Shown in pieces: positions 51 through 5,995 of a DNA stretch of 8,059 bases. The notes under the pieces are model-generated. The model was not told the DNA's origin, did no database searches, and saw only the letters and a list, made by a program, of their open reading frames with translations. The stretch is from IMG/VR virus record IMGVR_UViG_2778261541_000003; one strand, written 5' to 3'. The stretch comes from a virus. Lineage: Duplodnaviria; Heunggongvirae; Uroviricota; Caudoviricetes. Numbering within the stretch: position 1 is the stretch's first letter; every line of letters starts with the position of its first letter. The position numbers and the translations under genes are program-made.

Positions 51-587
51 CTACCAATAATGTAATATTATTGACTTACGTTGTTTTCTTGCTTCGTAGA
101 ATAAACGCTCTTGCGGCGATAATTTGTGAAAACTGCCGGATGCACAATATATGTTTTTTAACTTTTCGCTGGTTGCTTTTATTGTATCTTCTGAGATGTA
201 TTTTAGGTATTTATCCGTATAGATGTTGCTACTATAAGAAATTAATGTTTTGCTGTTGTTGTGATGTGTTGTATTTTTATCGTTGAAGTCTGTATTTTTA
301 TTTACTGTCATTAGGTTTTTAATGATTACATGTAATGCAATAGTCTCCCCATCATCAATTCCATATTTGATGTCATAGTCAGTATATTTATTTGTTATAC
401 CGCTTCCTGATAGCGGCACTATGTACTCTGAGAAAAATGAGTTTGCCGCGTGACCATCAAGAGCAATAGCAGTTTTTTTGTGGTAAAAATAAAACAATAT
501 TGAGAGAGTCAAAATAATAGCGACGCCTAATGCAACCTTTAATATAGATATGGTTTTCAAAATATCGCTCCTTGTTGTAACATACAT
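51..587 (-). CDS. Hypothetical signal-anchored (single N-terminal TM helix) protein, Asn/Lys/Tyr-rich, AT-rich gene
   Basis: ORF track 51..608 (-). Hydrophobic stretch ILKVALGVAIILTLSILFYFY followed by HKK. The track start at 608 is TTG with no SD. In-frame ATG at 587..585 chosen here; an alternative TTG at 560 is preceded by a strong AAGGAG (rc of 568-573) at 7 nt spacing and would give N-terminus MKTISILKV. No family recognised. Confidence 0.55.
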   Translation of the reverse strand: MYVTTRSDILKTISILKVALGVAIILTLSILFYFYHKKTAIALDGHAANSFFSEYIVPLSGSGITNKYTDYDIKYGIDDGETIALHVIIKNLMTVNKNTDFNDKNTTHHNNSKTLISYSSNIYTDKYLKYISEDTIKATSEKLKNIYCASGSFHKLSPQERLFYEARKQRKSIILHYW

Positions 588-650
588 CAGTAATGTGGCG
601 TTTTTCAATTGTATTAAAGACGTGTAATATGTACACGCCTTTTGTTCTTC

Positions 651-1082
651 CTATTCAGGTATTTCAATTCCAAAACCATCTGCATCCCATGAGTTTTCAC
701 AGATGATGTAACCTAGTTCATTGAGCTTATTAAATGTTTTTTCAAAGATGATCTGGTAATCATTATCTGCAAGTGATTCCAGTTCAAGGTCATTAAGGTT
801 TATATAAAAACTTGTATGTCCAAGTGTTATTTTCTTATTGATTTCATTAAAAGTTCTTTTGAAAATAATATTTGATATTTCATGCCGTGCATTGTTTGCA
901 ATAATTTTTGCTTCATAAGCAGAAATTACGTCATCTTCATGAATATCTTTCAGAAAGCTGGTGTCAAGACGTTGTACTATTTCAGCGTTCATTGAGCGCT
1001 TATTGGCTTTTGCAGAAATTTCTATTTTTTCTTTTACTTCAACGGGAAGTCTGATCCTTAGTTGTGGATCTTCTCTGCTCAT
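651..1082 (-). CDS. mnt: Mnt-like ribbon-helix-helix (Arc/MetJ superfamily) repressor with an extra ~95-aa C-terminal domain of unknown function
   Basis: ORF track 651..1112 starts at TTG; in-frame ATG at 1082..1080 preceded by GGTGA. N-terminus MSREDPQLRIRLPVEVKEKIEISAKANKRSMNAEIVQRLD aligns closely with P22 Mnt as I recall it (MARDDPHFNFRMPMEVREKLKFRAEANGRSMNSELLQIV). Divergent from an arc-ant pair as in P22 immI. Confidence 0.8.
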   Translation of the reverse strand: MSREDPQLRIRLPVEVKEKIEISAKANKRSMNAEIVQRLDTSFLKDIHEDDVISAYEAKIIANNARHEISNIIFKRTFNEINKKITLGHTSFYINLNDLELESLADNDYQIIFEKTFNKLNELGYIICENSWDADGFGIEIPE

Positions 1083-1119: not shown

Positions 1120-1188
1120 AGTATGCCTCACCGTGTGCTTGACATCAATGACGCACGGTGTGACAATTGTTTTGCCCCACGGTGGGGC
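1120..1188. promoter_or_regulatory. Divergent promoter/operator region between the mnt-like and arc-like genes
   Basis: Plus strand: -35 TTGACA 1139-1144, 17-bp spacer, -10 GACAAT 1162-1167. Minus strand: -35 TTGATG (rc of 1143-1148), 17-bp spacer, -10 CATACT (rc of 1120-1125). 15-bp perfect palindrome GCCCCACGGTGGGGC at 1174-1188 sits at the predicted rightward start site and shares the CCACGGTGG core with the P22 Mnt operator as I recall it. Inverted 7-mers CACCGTG (1129-1135) and CACGGTG (1154-1160) flank the overlapping -35 elements. Confidence 0.5.
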
Positions 1189-1202: not shown

Positions 1203-1370
1203 ATGCAAAAAGCAAAAGAGATGTGTCAACGACGAGTTCGTTTTCCGGACGATGTGAAGTTAGCTATTGAAAGAAATGGCGAAAAAGAATGCCGAAAGTT
1301 CAATACAGAGATTATCTATCAGCTGAGGAAAGTGTATGGACTCACTGGTGAGAAGAATAGCGTGGCATAA
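1203..1370 (+). CDS. arc: Arc-like ribbon-helix-helix transcriptional repressor (55 aa)
   Basis: ORF track 1167..1370 starts at TTG; in-frame ATG at 1203 has AAGGAG (1190-1195) 7 nt upstream. RRVRFPDDVKLAIERNGEKECRKFNTEIIYQLRK resembles the P22 Arc RHH fold (FNLRWPREV...ENGRSVNSEIYQRV). Size and position (immediately upstream of ant) match arc. Confidence 0.75.
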   Translation: MQKAKEMCQRRVRFPDDVKLAIERNGEKECRKFNTEIIYQLRKVYGLTGEKNSVA

Positions 1371-1442
1371 AACAGCGAAGCCCAACGGTGGCCAGACCGT
1401 CAGGGCTTCAGTATCGTAAAACTACGTATAGGAATTAACGAC
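1367..1442 (-). ncRNA. Candidate sar-like antisense RNA covering the ant ribosome-binding site
   Basis: Minus-strand sigma70-like promoter (-35 TTGATA, 17-bp spacer, -10 TATACT) predicts a start near 1441-1443. The transcript would be antisense to the ant SD (AGGAA 1430-1434) and end at a minus-strand hairpin GAAGCCC...GGGCTTC (1377-1409) followed by GCUGUUUUAU. Predicted length ~75 nt, comparable to P22 sar (~68 nt, from memory). Confidence 0.5.
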
Positions 1443-2387
1443 ATGACGAGTATAGCAACAGCGGTATCTACTATCAACGTGCCATTCCACGGCGCAGAAC
1501 TTTATGTTGTCAATCACAACGGAGAACCGTACACCCCAATGAAACCTATCGTTGAAGGCATGGGTATGGATTGGGCTTCACAGTTTACGAAAATGAAGCA
1601 GCGGTTTAAAACCTGCATTGTGAAAATCACAATGCAGCTTCCTGGGGATGAACAGCGCCGTGAGATTATTTGTTTGGCACTTCGCAAACTTGCTGGCTGG
1701 TTGCAAACCATCAGCCCTAACAAAGTCCGCCCTGAAATCCGCGACAAGGTAATCCAGTATCAGGAAGAGTGTGACGATGTTCTCTACGAGTACTGGACTA
1801 AAGGCCATGTGGTTAACCCACGCAAAGCTAAAAAGGCGTTGCCGGGTAAAATAACCACTGAACAGCAGGAAGCCATTAAACAACTCGTCATGAGTCGCGG
1901 TCAGTCTCTGCCAAAAGAAAAACAGGCTAAGGCGATGATCACCATGTGGTCGTCACTGAAATCTCATTTTGGCTGTTCGTACAAAGAAATTGATGAAGAT
2001 CAATTCGCCGAAGCGTTGTCTCTTGTTGCTCGGGTTCCGCTTGAAGGGGAGCATCTCCCTGCTGGATCTGCATCAGAGAATGATGAAGTGGCAGTCAAGA
2101 TGTTAGATGCGCTTCGTGAGGCAATTAAAACACAGACAAAATGTTATGGTTATCCGCTGAAGCCCGGCTACCGCAGTCTGATTCATTCGCCGTCTGGTGT
2201 TCTCGGCCTGACGGAGAACTCACTGCTGATGAATCTGCTTAACCAGTTACAGGACGACGGGCACGATGTATCGGGCGCGGCGGCGGAGCTGACCACCATG
2301 TTCTGCTACATCGTCGGTGTGAGCAAATGCCTGCGTGATATCCAGACCCACGCGGAGTACATCAACGACAAGGCTGGGTTCTTCTGA
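1443..2387 (+). CDS. ant: Phage antirepressor (Ant; P22-antirepressor-like N-terminal domain plus conserved C-terminal domain)
   Basis: 314-aa ORF; AGGAA 8 nt upstream of ATG. Follows arc as in immI. N-terminal region (...LAGWLQTISPNKVRPEIRDKVIQYQEECDDVLYEYWTKG) resembles the P22 antirepressor N-domain family as I recall it. C-terminal ~80 aa are shared with two other genes in the window. Confidence 0.88.
   Translation: MTSIATAVSTINVPFHGAELYVVNHNGEPYTPMKPIVEGMGMDWASQFTKMKQRFKTCIVKITMQLPGDEQRREIICLALRKLAGWLQTISPNKVRPEIRDKVIQYQEECDDVLYEYWTKGHVVNPRKAKKALPGKITTEQQEAIKQLVMSRGQSLPKEKQAKAMITMWSSLKSHFGCSYKEIDEDQFAEALSLVARVPLEGEHLPAGSASENDEVAVKMLDALREAIKTQTKCYGYPLKPGYRSLIHSPSGVLGLTENSLLMNLLNQLQDDGHDVSGAAAELTTMFCYIVGVSKCLRDIQTHAEYINDKAGFF
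1449..1477 (-). promoter_or_regulatory. Candidate sigma70 promoter for the sar-like antisense RNA
   Basis: -35 TTGATA = rc of 1472-1477; 17-bp spacer; -10 TATACT = rc of 1449-1454. Lies inside the first codons of ant. Confidence 0.5.
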
Positions 2388-2533: not shown

Positions 2534-3166
2534 ATGAGAACAAATACAACAAGAAAAGCGATGCCATACATTATCCCAGAAGCAGATTTCGATAGAAAAC
2601 TGAACATGTCTGAGAAGAACACTAGTCACACCGAAAGCTACTTAGCGAAAGGTGTGGTTGATTTCGTTCTTCCGGGATTCACAACACCTTATGGTTATCG
2701 CCTTGTAAAATCTTGTAATGGCGATCATTACAGAATGATTACTACCAGCGATACTCCAGAAACGGTGTATGCGGTTAAGTTAATCTTTCGGGAAGATATC
2801 GTCGAAGCCAAAAGAACATGTACGCAGATCATGGTATGGCGTACGCCTAATGTTATTCATGACCGTGCTGTTCATGGTTTGCCTCAGATTTTTTTTCAGT
2901 TCTTCCTAGAGCAATATGCGATCGTTGTATCTGATGAGCAACAAACAATCGATGGGAGGAGATTCTGGGAAAGAATGATTTCTTGGGCTATAAACACCCC
3001 GGGATATAATGTATACGTTTCAGATGGCTCTGAAGAAGATAGACCTCTTAGCTTCATGACATCATGGGATGATTTCTATAGCCAGTGGGCTGATTTCTGT
3101 TGGGGCAGTGATAAAGATGTGCATACCCACAGACTACTGGTTATAAGCAAAGATAAACTGCATTAA
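2534..3166 (+). CDS. Hypothetical protein (210 aa), cassette gene, no recognisable family
   Basis: ATG at 2534 with GGGAGGA SD 5 nt upstream; stop TAA 3164-3166; visibly lower GC than the flanking ant genes. Convergent with the 3187-3630 gene, sharing a bidirectional terminator. Confidence 0.7.
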   Translation: MRTNTTRKAMPYIIPEADFDRKLNMSEKNTSHTESYLAKGVVDFVLPGFTTPYGYRLVKSCNGDHYRMITTSDTPETVYAVKLIFREDIVEAKRTCTQIMVWRTPNVIHDRAVHGLPQIFFQFFLEQYAIVVSDEQQTIDGRRFWERMISWAINTPGYNVYVSDGSEEDRPLSFMTSWDDFYSQWADFCWGSDKDVHTHRLLVISKDKLH

Positions 3167-3169
3167 TAG

Positions 3170-3188
3170 AAGCCCGCGGCGCGGGCTT
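3170..3188. terminator. Bidirectional hairpin terminator between convergent cassette genes
   Basis: AAGCCCGC-ggc-GCGGGCTT perfect 8-bp GC-rich stem at 3170-3188, followed by TTCTTCTTCTTC on the plus strand; overlaps the stop codon of the minus-strand gene. Confidence 0.55.
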
Positions 3189-3630
3189 ATTCTTCTTCTT
3201 CATCATTAAAAAGCGGATTGTTGTTTCCATCTGATGAAAGGAAAGGTATGTGTTCTCTTGAAAATCCAACAATGACAATTTCATTATCATTTTTTGCATA
3301 ATGAATGCATTCATTAGAATGCATTCCGCCAGGGTTGAAATTTAAGTTAATGGTATAATTCTTAAATGTGTTTGGATACCATGTTGGCCCACAATGATAA
3401 TGCCAATAATTCTCTTGCTCATAATTGTCTGAGCCGGGAATTTTATCATGGTTATCATCAACCCACGAGGGCTTGTTTTTTCCAACAAGCGCCCTTCCAT
3501 TGGCAACATCCTCTAAAAACCTTTGTATGATTTTTATTTCATCATCAGTAAGGAAAGGTCCGTCTACAGCGAAAGGGGTGTTGCTTTCCCCATGTAGAAA
3601 ACTATTAGATATTCTAATGTTAAACTTCAA
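3187..3630 (-). CDS. Hypothetical protein (147 aa) with acidic C-terminal tail, no recognisable family; possible toxin or effector partner of the upstream small ORF
   Basis: ORF track 3187..3630. Start is TTG (rc of 3628-3630) with AGGAG SD 6 nt upstream; no in-frame ATG until residue ~103. Ends ...NDEEEE. Contains YWHYHCGPTWYP. Confidence 0.65.
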   Translation of the reverse strand: MKFNIRISNSFLHGESNTPFAVDGPFLTDDEIKIIQRFLEDVANGRALVGKNKPSWVDDNHDKIPGSDNYEQENYWHYHCGPTWYPNTFKNYTINLNFNPGGMHSNECIHYAKNDNEIVIVGFSREHIPFLSSDGNNNPLFNDEEEE

Positions 3631-3879: not shown

Positions 3880-3903
3880 ATTTTAAAGGCACATCCCTGT
3901 GCC
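3880..3903 (-). terminator. Intrinsic terminator downstream of the second antirepressor (inside the repeat)
   Basis: Hairpin at 3888-3903 (GGCACA-loop-TGTGCC) followed on the minus strand by TTTAAAATAAT. Confidence 0.5.
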
Positions 3904-4141
3904 GCCGCCCGTCAGAAGAATCCTGCTTTGTCGCTGATGTACTCCGCGTGCGTCTGGATATCACGCAGGCATTTGCTCACACCGACGATGTAGCAGAACA
4001 TGGTGGTCAGCTCCGCCGCCGCGCCCGATACATCGTGCCCGTCGTCCTGTAACTGGTTAAGCAGATTCATCAGCAGTGAGTTCTCCGTCAGGCCGAGAAC
4101 ACCAGACGGCGAGTGAATCAGGCTGCGGTAGCCGGGCTTCA
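3882..4141. repeat. Inverted repeat copy B (partner of 2157-2418)
   Basis: Reverse complement matches copy A; covers the last ~77 codons of the second antirepressor plus its terminator hairpin. Confidence 0.9.
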
Positions 4142-4568
4142 GTGGGGCGCTGTATTCTTTTTTGTCTTCCAGCTTGATCGCCTCCATAATGGCGGGCATG
4201 AAGCCTGACAAGACCTTCTCCACTTTTGTTTCTTGTTGTCTTAAACGTTTCTCGCATTCAATGAAGTAGCGTCGCACCTGGCGACCTTTTTCGTTACGCT
4301 CGACCATCGCCAGCTCTTTGGCTGTATCAAGGGTGAGGTGGTACTCTTTGCGGTTGTGGCCGCCTCTACCAGATGTTTGCTTTCCCAAATTGGAAAGCAA
4401 AATATAGTCTTGATTTTCAATGAATTCGTATTCTGATATGCGATTTGTAATCCATGCTGCAAACACCTTTTTAACACCTAAAAAAGCGTGCAGATCGCGG
4501 GCATTACAAAGTAGGGCTGTTTCGTTAGATATAGTGCCGTTGAATACGGGGATGAGTTGAGCGTTCAT
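3912..4568 (-). CDS. Phage antirepressor, second copy: different N-terminal domain (Bro-N/ORF6N/Rha-like, tentative) fused to the same C-terminal domain as Ant
   Basis: 218-aa ORF; ATG at 4568..4566 with GGAGA SD (rc of 4576-4580). N-terminal part (...[33 protein letters not shown]...[32 protein letters not shown]) resembles phage antirepressor N-terminal families. C-terminal 77 aa are ~97% identical to Ant (1443-2387). Confidence 0.88.
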
Positions 4569-4596: not shown

Positions 4597-4804
4597 CACC
4601 ACCGCTGAGACCAATCAGATGGTGGTGAACTGAACGGAGTTGGTCTTACCGGCCTAAGTGGTACCGGCGTCCTTTCGGACCCCCATTCAGCCCACCATAA
4701 TTCTGGCATGACTGTGCTATACGCATAAAAAAACCACGTCTGGCGTGGTATGCGCCACTTAGTAATCCGGGAGACCAATCCCGGCACTGGATTTTGCCAG
4801 TGCC
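4597..4804 (-). other. Hairpin-rich untranslated leader upstream of the second antirepressor
   Basis: H1 at 4597-4627: CACCACC-g-CTGA-[gaccaa]-TCAG-at-GGTGGTG. H4 at 4767-4784: CCGGGA-[gaccaa]-TCCCGG, same hexaloop. H5 at 4783-4804: GGCACTGG-attttg-CCAGTGCC. No convincing ORF in this ~400 bp (track ORF 4596..4928 rejected). Confidence 0.45.
4726..4749 (-). terminator. Candidate intrinsic terminator or attenuator within the leader (minus strand)
   Basis: Minus-strand RNA ACCACG-CCAGA-CGUGGU followed by UUUUUUU (plus-strand A-run 4727-4733). Sits ~160 nt upstream of the second antirepressor start codon. Confidence 0.45.
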
Positions 4805-4839
4805 CGATTACTATGGCACAAGAGGAGTGCAATGTAAAT

Positions 4840-4967: not shown

Positions 4968-5696
4968 ATGGAAGTTTTCTGGATAGTTGTTGGTGTGGTT
5001 GCGGTGATTATTTACGTTATCAACCAGAACAAGACTAAGATCTCTGATCGTACGGTCGTTAATCATAACAAAACGATAAAGACCGAAGATGGGGAGATAA
5101 CGATTAATCGTACACAGGTGATAGAACACACCTCTACTCAGTTTCAAAAAACTGGAGGTAATGCGCCTAATATTTCCGCACCTCCTGCTTATGATAGTGC
5201 GGTAATCCAGACATATTATAAACAGCAGGAGTTAGCAAAAGAGAGGCAACTGATTCAGCCAAAGCCGTTTACAGCTGAGCTTCCACCTGGAGTGTCAACG
5301 CGTCCGGCATATCATGGAAGATTCCCTGGTGATGACATATCGTCTCAGTCATCTAAAAAAGCACCTCAGGCAGTATCAGAGCCAGCAAGAATACCTTCTG
5401 TATCGCCGCCAAAAGAAGAATCAGCTAACAGAGTTTCAAGTGGTAGCAAGCAGTGCTTGCGATGCAGAATAAACCTACCATATGAAAAATTCAGGAAATC
5501 GTCAAAAAATCCAGATGGATTGACTAAGTGGTGTGCAAGGTGTCTCGATGGCCCAAAGAATACACGCCATATGAAGTGGTGCCCAATTTGTAATGTCCGC
5601 AGAAAACGAACAAGCTTTTACCCTAATAATCAAAATGCGGATGGCTTAATGGCATGGTGCAAAACGTGCTGGGACGAGCACAAAGCGAAACGATAG
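4968..5696 (+). CDS. Membrane-anchored protein with Pro/Ser-rich linker and C-terminal tandem CxxC-N20-WCxxC (zinc-ribbon-like) motifs; function unknown
   Basis: 242-aa ORF; GAGG 7 nt upstream of ATG. N-terminal TM helix MEVFWIVVGVVAVIIYVI followed by NQNKTK (positive-inside rule suggests a cytoplasmic C-domain). Two Cys motifs: CLRCRINLPYEKFRKSSKNPDGLTKWCARC and CPICNVRRKRTSFYPNNQNADGLMAWCKTC. Terminator follows. Confidence 0.75.
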   Translation: MEVFWIVVGVVAVIIYVINQNKTKISDRTVVNHNKTIKTEDGEITINRTQVIEHTSTQFQKTGGNAPNISAPPAYDSAVIQTYYKQQELAKERQLIQPKPFTAELPPGVSTRPAYHGRFPGDDISSQSSKKAPQAVSEPARIPSVSPPKEESANRVSSGSKQCLRCRINLPYEKFRKSSKNPDGLTKWCARCLDGPKNTRHMKWCPICNVRRKRTSFYPNNQNADGLMAWCKTCWDEHKAKR

Positions 5697-5720
5697 GCCG
5701 CTCTTGCGGCCTTTAAATTT
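5696..5720 (+). terminator. Intrinsic terminator after the Cys-rich membrane protein gene
   Basis: GGCCGC-TCTT-GCGGCC (5696-5711) followed by TTTAAATTT; stem overlaps the stop codon TAG 5694-5696. Confidence 0.6.
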
Positions 5721-5976
5721 ACCGGGTTTGTTTTCGTAATTGTTCGGCACAATAGTCGAGATGTGTTTGCAGATCCCGCATAGACATCTGTGAGCTGGTG
5801 ACGTAGTTAATCAGTGCAGTCAGTTCGGCAAGTGGGCCATCGACATTAAATCCATCCTTATCGAGATCCCGGAGTAATTTCATCAAGTGCGATCCCTCCA
5901 CCAGTGACCTGACGCCTCCCGGCGTGTGAATCCTTTCGGTAAATCCGTCTTCCAGTGGATAGTGATACTGCTGCAT
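5719..5976 (-). CDS. Small stand-alone antirepressor C-terminal-domain protein (85 aa), candidate SOS-inducible mini-antirepressor
   Basis: ORF track 5719..5994 starts at TTG; in-frame ATG at 5976..5974 with GGAGA SD 7 nt upstream. PLEDGFTERIHTPGGVRSLVEGSHLMKLLRDLDKDGFNVDGPLAELTALINYVTSSQMSMRDLQTHLDY aligns over its length with the shared C-terminal domain of the two larger antirepressors ([69 protein letters not shown]). LexA box 20 bp upstream. Confidence 0.8.
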   Translation of the reverse strand: MQQYHYPLEDGFTERIHTPGGVRSLVEGSHLMKLLRDLDKDGFNVDGPLAELTALINYVTSSQMSMRDLQTHLDYCAEQLRKQTR

Positions 5977-5995
5977 CTTATCTTCTCCATGCAAT

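Follow-up and report, generated by a model that had tools for sequence, protein, structure and literature searches.

A long Mnt-like repressor with an undescribed C-terminal domain family in a P22-type immI cassette of an Escherichia coli prophage

Results

Gene content of the cassette

We analysed an 8,059-nt stretch of viral DNA (IMG/VR record IMGVR_UViG_2778261541_000003, Caudoviricetes; hereafter the window, with all coordinates counted from its first letter), centring on the minus-strand gene at 651-1082, which encodes a 143-residue protein with an Arc/Mnt-type ribbon-helix-helix (RHH) DNA-binding domain and a longer C-terminal part. To judge from sequence, this gene occupies the mnt position of a complete P22-type immI cassette (mnt, the Pmnt/Pant promoters, arc, sar and ant), and the cassette is carried by a TL-2011b-like Escherichia coli prophage. 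The window shares ~95% identity with Escherichia phage TL-2011b across 59% of its length, and in the record of that phage the gene adjoins an ‘Arc-like repressor’ and an ‘anti-repressor Ant’. Beyond a 120-bp intergenic region to the right of the repressor gene follow an Arc-like open reading frame (ORF), sar and ant. The features of the cassette, including those described further below, are the following:

651-1082, minus strand: coding sequence of the long Mnt-type repressor, 143 amino acids (aa), stop codon at 651-653; phrog_1388 (unknown function) spans its full length
945-1082, minus strand: Arc/Mnt RHH DNA-binding domain, residues 1-46 (Pfam PF03869, 1mnt, AlphaFold2 (AF2), Foldseek)
654-944, minus strand: residues 47-143, predicted compact acidic alpha/beta domain (AF2, isoelectric point (pI), profile searches)
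1120-1148, minus strand: candidate promoter Pmnt, TTGATG (1143-1148), 17-nt spacer, CATACT (1120-1125), read from sequence
1125-1139, no strand assigned: O_L, operator-like 15-mer, degenerate GCCTCACCGTGTGCT; family consensus GCCCCACSGTGGGGT
1139-1167, plus strand: candidate promoter Pant, TTGACA (1139-1144), 17-nt spacer, GACAAT (1162-1167), TG extension; 10 of 12 consensus positions
1149-1165, no strand assigned: O_M, operator-like site TGACGCACGGTGTGACA, within the Pant spacer and overlapping the -10
1174-1188, no strand assigned: O_R, operator-like site GCCCCACGGTGGGGC, perfect palindrome GCCCCAC-G-GTGGGGC about Pant +1
1203-1370, plus strand: Arc-like short RHH repressor, 55 aa; predicted contact residues Q9, R11 and R13
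1374-1441, minus strand: sar antisense RNA (Rfam RF00262, 45.2 bits, gathering score 43, E = 7e-7)
1443-2387, plus strand: antirepressor Ant (Pfam P22_AR_N, E = 1e-44)

The Arc-like protein is 33% identical to P22 Arc (53 aa) and also 33% identical to the RHH domain of the long protein; sharing the RHH fold and the cassette with Arc, it is the counterpart of that protein in the window. The sar match covers the ribosome-binding site of ant, as in P22; on the minus strand, a sequence resembling a promoter lies at 1477-1449 and a hairpin resembling a terminator at 1398-1379. The antirepressor shares 40% identity with P22 Ant over 217 aa.

The 143-codon repressor ORF begins with an ATG at 1082 (MSREDPQLRIRLP...), and its product opens with MSREDPQ and ends in ...ENSWDADGFGIEIPE. 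A mechanical ORF list places the beginning of the same frame at a TTG at 1112, giving 153 aa; MSREDPQ is the N-terminus of all 33 aligned homologues, and the ATG at 1082 is therefore the real start. In the public record of TL-2011b (NC_019445, 3596-3937), the gene (gp40) is given as a truncated 113-aa ‘hypothetical protein’, annotated from an internal codon such that the DNA-reading beta-strand of the RHH is missing.

As originally predicted, the RHH is limited to roughly the first 45 residues: residues 2-46 match Pfam Arc (PF03869; E = 1.1e-14, 54.5 bits, cut-off 20.4) and residues 3-45 match P22 Mnt (PDB 1mnt, the N-terminal domain; E = 3.5e-7). Over its whole length, P22 Mnt (83 aa; PF03869 and PF11423) is 32% identical to the long protein (pairwise E = 3e-14). 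The beta-strand of the RHH, QLRIRLP, carries the predicted base-contact residues Q7, R9 and R11, and AF2 places its helices at 14-26 and 31-41. Foldseek matched the N-terminal part to Arc and to AmrZ of Pseudomonas aeruginosa (PDB 3qoq), an Arc-type RHH with a C-terminal part of its own, the latter being the best structural match.

Operators and promoters

Three related operator-like sites surround the candidate promoter Pant. O_L lies within the candidate Pmnt spacer and abuts the Pant -35, O_M stands at the position of the arc operator of P22, and O_R is, by both position and sequence, the counterpart of P22 Omnt (GGTCCACGGTGGACC). The P22 region, taken from the genome record, holds one site of this kind, Omnt AGGTCCACGGTGGACCT, which is as far from the Pant -35 as O_R is (the centre of O_R lies 42 bp from the first base of the -35, compared with 43 bp in P22). 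These motifs are rare in the window: the 9-mer CCACSGTGG, contained in O_R, occurs once (0.01 expected), and the heptamer CACSGTG occurs three times in the 8,059 bp, always within 1129-1184 (0.67 expected window-wide). Pmnt is weaker than Pant, falling below the scan threshold in the window, and its -35 overlaps that of Pant.

Across 49 distinct regulatory regions of related loci, O_L, O_M and O_R occur together in 47, with diverged flanking sequence; Pant is conserved in 47 of the 49, and O_M is nearly invariant in 47 regulatory regions. The centres of O_L and O_M are 25 bp apart (24 in one region), and those of O_M and O_R 24, 26 or 27 bp apart. Among more distant cassettes, those of Pseudomonas type carry the sites GGACCAC.GTGGT.., GGACCAC.GTGGT.. 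and GGATCAC.GTGATCC at separations of 26 and 25-26 bp, and a Vibrio cassette carries two copies of a different 19-bp palindrome. Furthermore, the predicted contact residues covary with the operator flanks, Q-R-R accompanying CCCCAC, Q-K-R accompanying GGACCAC or GGATCAC, and the H-N-R of P22 Mnt accompanying GGTCCAC.

The long and the short protein have the same three predicted contact residues in the window and in a metagenome cassette; in a Pseudomonas cassette the middle residue differs (Q-N-R vs Q-K-R). Because their predicted contact residues match, a single operator set probably serves both the long and the short repressor. This is unlike P22, in which one Mnt operator is accompanied by a distinct Arc operator; here, three related sites face two repressors with shared predicted contact residues. 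Separately, O_L is degenerate in the TL-2011b-like lineage, and the Pmnt -10 reads CATACT there and CATAAT in the other loci compared (L002, L006 and others), which suggests an altered autoregulation in this lineage.

Taken together, sequence, a position divergent from arc-sar-ant and an operator sharing the CCACGGTGG core bear out the initial reading of the protein as an Mnt-like RHH repressor. As for P22 Mnt, whose likeness to the present protein extends to the CCACGGTGG-core palindrome just after the Pant -10, maintenance repression is to be expected.

An undescribed C-terminal domain

Residues 47-143 have no match in Pfam, NCBIfam, PADLOC or the sequences of the PDB. Their composition (16 Ile, 11 Glu and 11 Asn in 97 residues) agrees with the earlier description of this part as rich in these three residues. 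In an AF2 model of the full-length protein (34-sequence alignment, pLDDT 80), a poorly defined linker (47-54) leads into a long helix (55-86), a strand (91-95), a second helix (106-123) and two further strands (126-133 and 136-140); a model of residues 47-143 alone, from a more diverse alignment of 28 sequences, left these elements unchanged at pLDDT 90.7 and pTM 0.78. The region is accordingly predicted to be a compact alpha/beta domain and not a Mnt-like coiled coil, the outcome that would have spoken against the original prediction.

Upon searching for structural neighbours, as had been proposed from the outset, we obtained a confident fold with no significant relative. Foldseek searches of the full-length model against PDB and BFVD, and of the C-terminal model against PDB, returned nothing at E<=0.001 for the C-terminal part; the best PDB match was the winged helix of Stn1 (E = 0.13), with TM-scores <=0.55. 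In BFVD the full-length model drew many unannotated phage proteins of 85-100 aa, with target-normalised TM-scores up to 0.76 and E>=0.0028. The order of elements is compatible with a winged helix (alpha1-beta1-alpha2-alpha3-beta2-beta3), but at a best E of 0.13 the resemblance is too weak for the domain to be classified as such.

The domain is acidic, with a pI of 4.56 and a net charge of -10 in the window, and pI values of 4.3-5.7 and net charges of -2 to -13 in all 31 members examined, which argues against DNA binding by the domain. G88, L120 and G124 are invariant across the wide family, A55, A58, L101 and Y125 are at least 90% conserved, and nearly all other conserved positions of the domain are hydrophobic. 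An Ala-rich a/d stripe (A55, A58, A62, A65, L69, I72) runs along the first half of the long helix, and the domain also contains an acidic D-L-E-L-E segment.

A search of residues 47-143 against 1.84 billion representative proteins yielded 18 clusters only. The full-length clusters measure ~140 aa (138-177) and carry the same N-terminal RHH, the lone exception being a 758-aa repetitive protein that we take to be a spurious match. The domain thus appears, from these sequences, to occur only fused to this type of RHH, and it constitutes an undescribed fold family that is absent from Pfam.

The relation of this part to the tail of Mnt was assessed separately. P22 Mnt ends in a single helix, its tetramerising coiled coil (PF11423), whereas a globular acidic domain of 97 residues is predicted here. 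PF11423 was found in every listed Mnt homologue and was not matched at E<=1 in the window protein or in 28 C-terminal domains; together with the compact AF2 model, this upholds the view that the C-terminal 97 residues are unlike the Mnt tail. The alignment to P22 Mnt that had been suggested for locating the end of similarity gave a divided answer. Similarity is significant over the RHH, and BLASTP, the Mnt-family PHROG 795 and full-length hhalign all carry the alignment on to residue 75-86, within helix 55-86; the extension is not significant on its own. With the RHH removed, the comparison gave P = 0.007-0.018 and the two profiles picked different helices, a result neither significant nor consistent. 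We therefore do not claim homology between helix 55-86 and the Mnt tetramerisation helix, the signal being lost without the RHH. Mnt-like in position, operator and RHH but lacking the C-terminal tetramerisation element of Mnt, the protein is not a strict member of the Mnt family.

Family distribution

We found 262 homologues of the long protein; those listed are mostly 142-154 aa in length (with a few fragments and longer calls) and, apart from near-identical copies, 58-69% identical to it. They come from Yersinia (including Y. pestis), Enterobacter, Citrobacter, Salmonella, Klebsiella, Proteus and other hosts, and almost all bear no other name than ‘Arc family DNA-binding protein’. Prophages of Y. 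pestis and Enterobacter have the gene amid tail genes, divergent from a 55-aa gene and a Bro-N or P22_AR-type antirepressor. Neighbours were counted in 80 viral contigs: in 72 of the 74 loci with a called divergent neighbour, that neighbour belongs to one Arc-like gene cluster, and on the other side stand 23 unrelated clusters in both orientations, often a tail gene. It is the operator region and the arc-like gene that move together with the repressor gene. Even at ~30% identity, three members (from Vibrio navarrensis, a Pseudomonas and a metagenome) still combine a long RHH gene with a short RHH gene and an antirepressor in this layout.

A homologue also occurs in the filamentous phage PfAC03, in which ORF7 (40% identity, including the C-terminal domain) is divergent from an excisionase gene. 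Pf prophages differ from the present case in being Inoviridae and in having no antirepressor annotated adjacent to the gene, and their Arc-family proteins are likewise experimentally uncharacterised. A variant with an Arc-family gene in place of the Pf4r repressor gene has been described in 6.6% of Pf prophages (PMC7549136), which may not be the variant of ORF7. Our literature search found no study of the protein family, the only mention being that of related Arc/Mnt-domain proteins in Pf prophages in the same paper.

Proposed role of the long repressor

We consider it very probable, on the strength of sequence and synteny, that the product of this gene is the equivalent of Mnt, exerting maintenance repression on the antirepressor promoter. 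The RHH would pair into dimers that read the 15-bp palindromes with CAC(C/G)GTG core, which bracket and fill Pant; with these operators occupied, RNA polymerase would be blocked at Pant, no Ant would be made and the main repressor of the prophage would stay active. Binding at O_L, in the spacer of the repressor’s own promoter, would add autoregulation.

For the C-terminal domain we tentatively propose, at slightly less than even odds and by analogy with Mnt and AmrZ, a self-association module that holds RHH dimers together and probably links neighbouring operators. The C-terminal part of AmrZ is needed for oligomerisation and function. AmrZ differs in being a chromosomal global regulator, and the two C-terminal parts have no detectable similarity. 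We infer an oligomeriser because the domain is confidently modelled as a single globule, is fused only to this RHH, is acidic and is conserved mainly at hydrophobic and glycine positions. A flexible linker would tether this compact acidic domain, which would not itself bind DNA, and its self-association would do the job of the Mnt coiled coil. Every long-type cassette contains two or three near-identical palindromes (P22 has one Omnt), so the domain probably also couples repressors on neighbouring operators. The long repressor could in this way fill the operator set cooperatively at the low concentrations of a lysogen, and the short Arc-like paralogue, which has no C-terminal domain, would act only at the high concentrations that follow infection. 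P22 Arc, too, has no C-terminal domain, and it tetramerises only on DNA; the long repressor differs from it in possessing such a domain.

We put the probability of the combined explanation, an Mnt-equivalent role together with a self-associating C-terminal domain, at roughly 0.5, and several points weigh against it. Self-association is argued from the Mnt and AmrZ analogy and from the pattern of conservation. The O_L-O_R spacing (49, 51 or 52 bp) follows no single helical phase, so strict looping between these two sites is not indicated, and O_L is itself degenerate in the window. The Arc-like protein shares the contact residues of the long repressor, so that either protein may bind the sites. 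Finally, Arc achieves operator cooperativity without an extra domain; such a domain is therefore not strictly needed for tetramer binding, which leaves room for another function.

The left neighbour and AT-richness

On the other side of the repressor gene lies the following ORF:

51-608, minus strand: left ORF, 185 aa, of which 169 match phrog_8033 (unknown function); hydrophobic stretch near the N-terminus

This ORF occupies the P22 position of sieA downstream of mnt, although it has no detectable similarity to SieA (E = 0.12), and PADLOC returned no defence-system match for it. Both genes are AT-rich, as the original prediction had remarked: the GC content is 32.4% in the repressor gene (29.6% in its C-terminal part), 32.6% in the left ORF and 45.6% in the rest of the window. 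The further suggestion that the pair was acquired together fared less well. Only the 17 loci of the TL-2011b-like group pair the left ORF with the gene, 23 other neighbours taking its place elsewhere, and in each of the 14 other loci checked (L002, L006, L026 and others) the long repressor gene had a lower GC content than its surroundings (34-43% vs 43-52%). Low GC is therefore a trait of the family and does not point to a recent acquisition together with the left neighbour, and co-acquisition holds only inside the TL-2011b-like lineage.

Alternative functions of the C-terminal domain

The original prediction had suggested that the C-terminal part might bind a ligand or a partner and so make maintenance repression respond to a signal. 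In its small-molecule form, the domain would be a sensor in which a small molecule or peptide lowers DNA binding and releases Ant, with induction by a cue other than DNA damage. RHH repressors under ligand control do exist, NikR and MetJ among them. A sensor would also account for a conserved, independently folding globular domain where P22 tetramerisation needs only a helix, and a fold without known neighbour makes a binding function conceivable. NikR offers the closest likeness, an RHH followed by a globular C-terminal domain that oligomerises and is potentially ligand-sensing; its C-terminal domain is, however, ferredoxin-like (ACT-like) with conserved His/Cys nickel ligands, whereas here the order is alpha-beta-alpha-beta-beta and there are no conserved His/Cys residues or polar clusters. 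NikR was not among the best 50 matches listed in either Foldseek search of PDB. None of the residues that are invariant across the wide family is polar or charged, the fold is small, with only ~57 residues beyond the long helix, and the searches revealed no resemblance to ACT, PAS, GAF or any other sensor fold. Since the domain has neither a conserved cluster of polar residues nor a pocket-bearing structural neighbour, we regard this sensor as quite unlikely.

The domain could instead contact another protein, whether the short Arc-like paralogue, RNA polymerase (activating Pmnt) or a host factor. Among protein-coding neighbours, the Arc-like gene alone is always found with the repressor gene, the strong acidity would suit a surface that meets a basic partner, and the weak resemblances of the fold include the protein-contact winged helices of Stn1 and ScpA. 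These Foldseek matches lack significance (E>=0.13). Different loci carry different antirepressors (P22_AR_N, Bro-N, pRha+ANT), so Ant is not the partner, and the Pf homologue has no annotated adjacent Arc-like short gene or antirepressor in the region shown, a second Arc-like gene (ORF5) lying ~1.1 kb off. Since both the antirepressor cargo and the left neighbour differ between loci, the idea of a conserved partner encoded nearby was not sustained, and we judge partner binding unlikely. Neither ligand sensing nor partner binding found positive support. A more general proposition, very unlikely in our estimate, is that the domain receives a signal (a small molecule or a protein) and thereby switches off the long repressor; if true, widespread immI cassettes of gamma-proteobacterial prophages would tie antirepressor release and induction to an SOS-independent cue, with the short Arc-like paralogue, blind to the signal, acting as a brake through competition for the same operators.

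Two further readings can be set aside. In the first, the protein is an RHH antitoxin (compare the type II antitoxins FitA, ParD and CcdA) whose C-terminal domain would counteract a toxin, the membrane protein encoded at 51-608. The two genes are indeed adjacent, on the same strand and similarly AT-rich, RHH antitoxins carry C-terminal toxin-binding regions, and a weak FitA-like RHH match (22.8 bits) was seen; this match falls below the 27-bit cut-off, a folded globule is predicted in place of a disordered toxin-binding tail, and neither PADLOC nor NCBIfam gave a match naming an antitoxin, toxin or defence system for either protein. The left neighbour is not conserved (23 clusters in both orientations, often a tail gene), which contradicts a toxin-antitoxin pair and leaves this reading extremely improbable. 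The chance that the domain is a second DNA-binding module of winged-helix type is next to negligible as well. Its element order (alpha-beta-alpha-alpha-beta-beta) and weak Foldseek matches to the winged helices of HSF, MarR and Stn1 speak for such a module, but no Foldseek match is significant, the helix in the ‘recognition’ position has few basic residues, and the acidity of every member (31 of 31) contradicts it. Self-association of RHH dimers remains the function that we favour for the domain.

Other antirepressor elements in the window

Apart from the immI cassette, the window contains another module for antirepressor control, which resembles that of phage P1 and lies on the minus strand at 4618-4816 and 3912-4568:

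4727-4803, minus strand: isrK (67.7 bits)
4618-4702, minus strand: C4 antisense RNA (61.2 bits)
4764-4816, minus strand: c4-a1b1 target (sub-threshold match)
3912-4568, minus strand: AntA/AntB-type antirepressor ORF (Pfam PF08346, E = 4e-26), downstream of isrK, C4 and c4-a1b1

The window therefore holds both a protein-controlled and an RNA-controlled antirepressor system. The two antirepressor genes are convergent, and their 3' ends form the arms (2154-2417 and 3882-4145) of a 264-nt inverted repeat that is 97% complementary, with 1,464 nt between the arms; hence their products share a nearly identical C-terminal domain of ~80 aa. This repeat could mediate inversion or gene conversion of the segment with ORFs 2534-3166 (plus strand) and 3187-3630 (minus strand). 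A third copy of this module within 8 kb is the minus-strand ORF at 5719-5994 (91 aa), in which a homologue of the shared C-terminal domain stands alone (43% identity to Ant residues 235-310, E = 2e-16). A plus-strand ORF at 4968-5696 (242 aa) has a hydrophobic N-terminus and, in its C-terminal region, paired Cys-x-x-Cys motifs; its match to the Stc1 domain is weak and below the cut-off (E = 5e-4).

Discussion

RHH repressors with C-terminal extensions are common; what is new here is an undescribed domain family together with a three-operator circuit. This wiring, in which two repressors share predicted contact residues, departs from the textbook case of P22. The domain could now be named, and annotations as ‘Arc family DNA-binding protein’ or as a truncated ‘hypothetical protein’ corrected.

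Antirepressor cassettes decide the silence of many prophages of enteric pathogens, and the cassette described here occurs in prophages of E. coli (including a TL-2011b-like phage of an enterohaemorrhagic E. coli outbreak strain), Yersinia pestis, Enterobacter, Salmonella and Klebsiella. The system is concrete, easy to test and suited to asking how oligomerisation domains tune RHH repressors.

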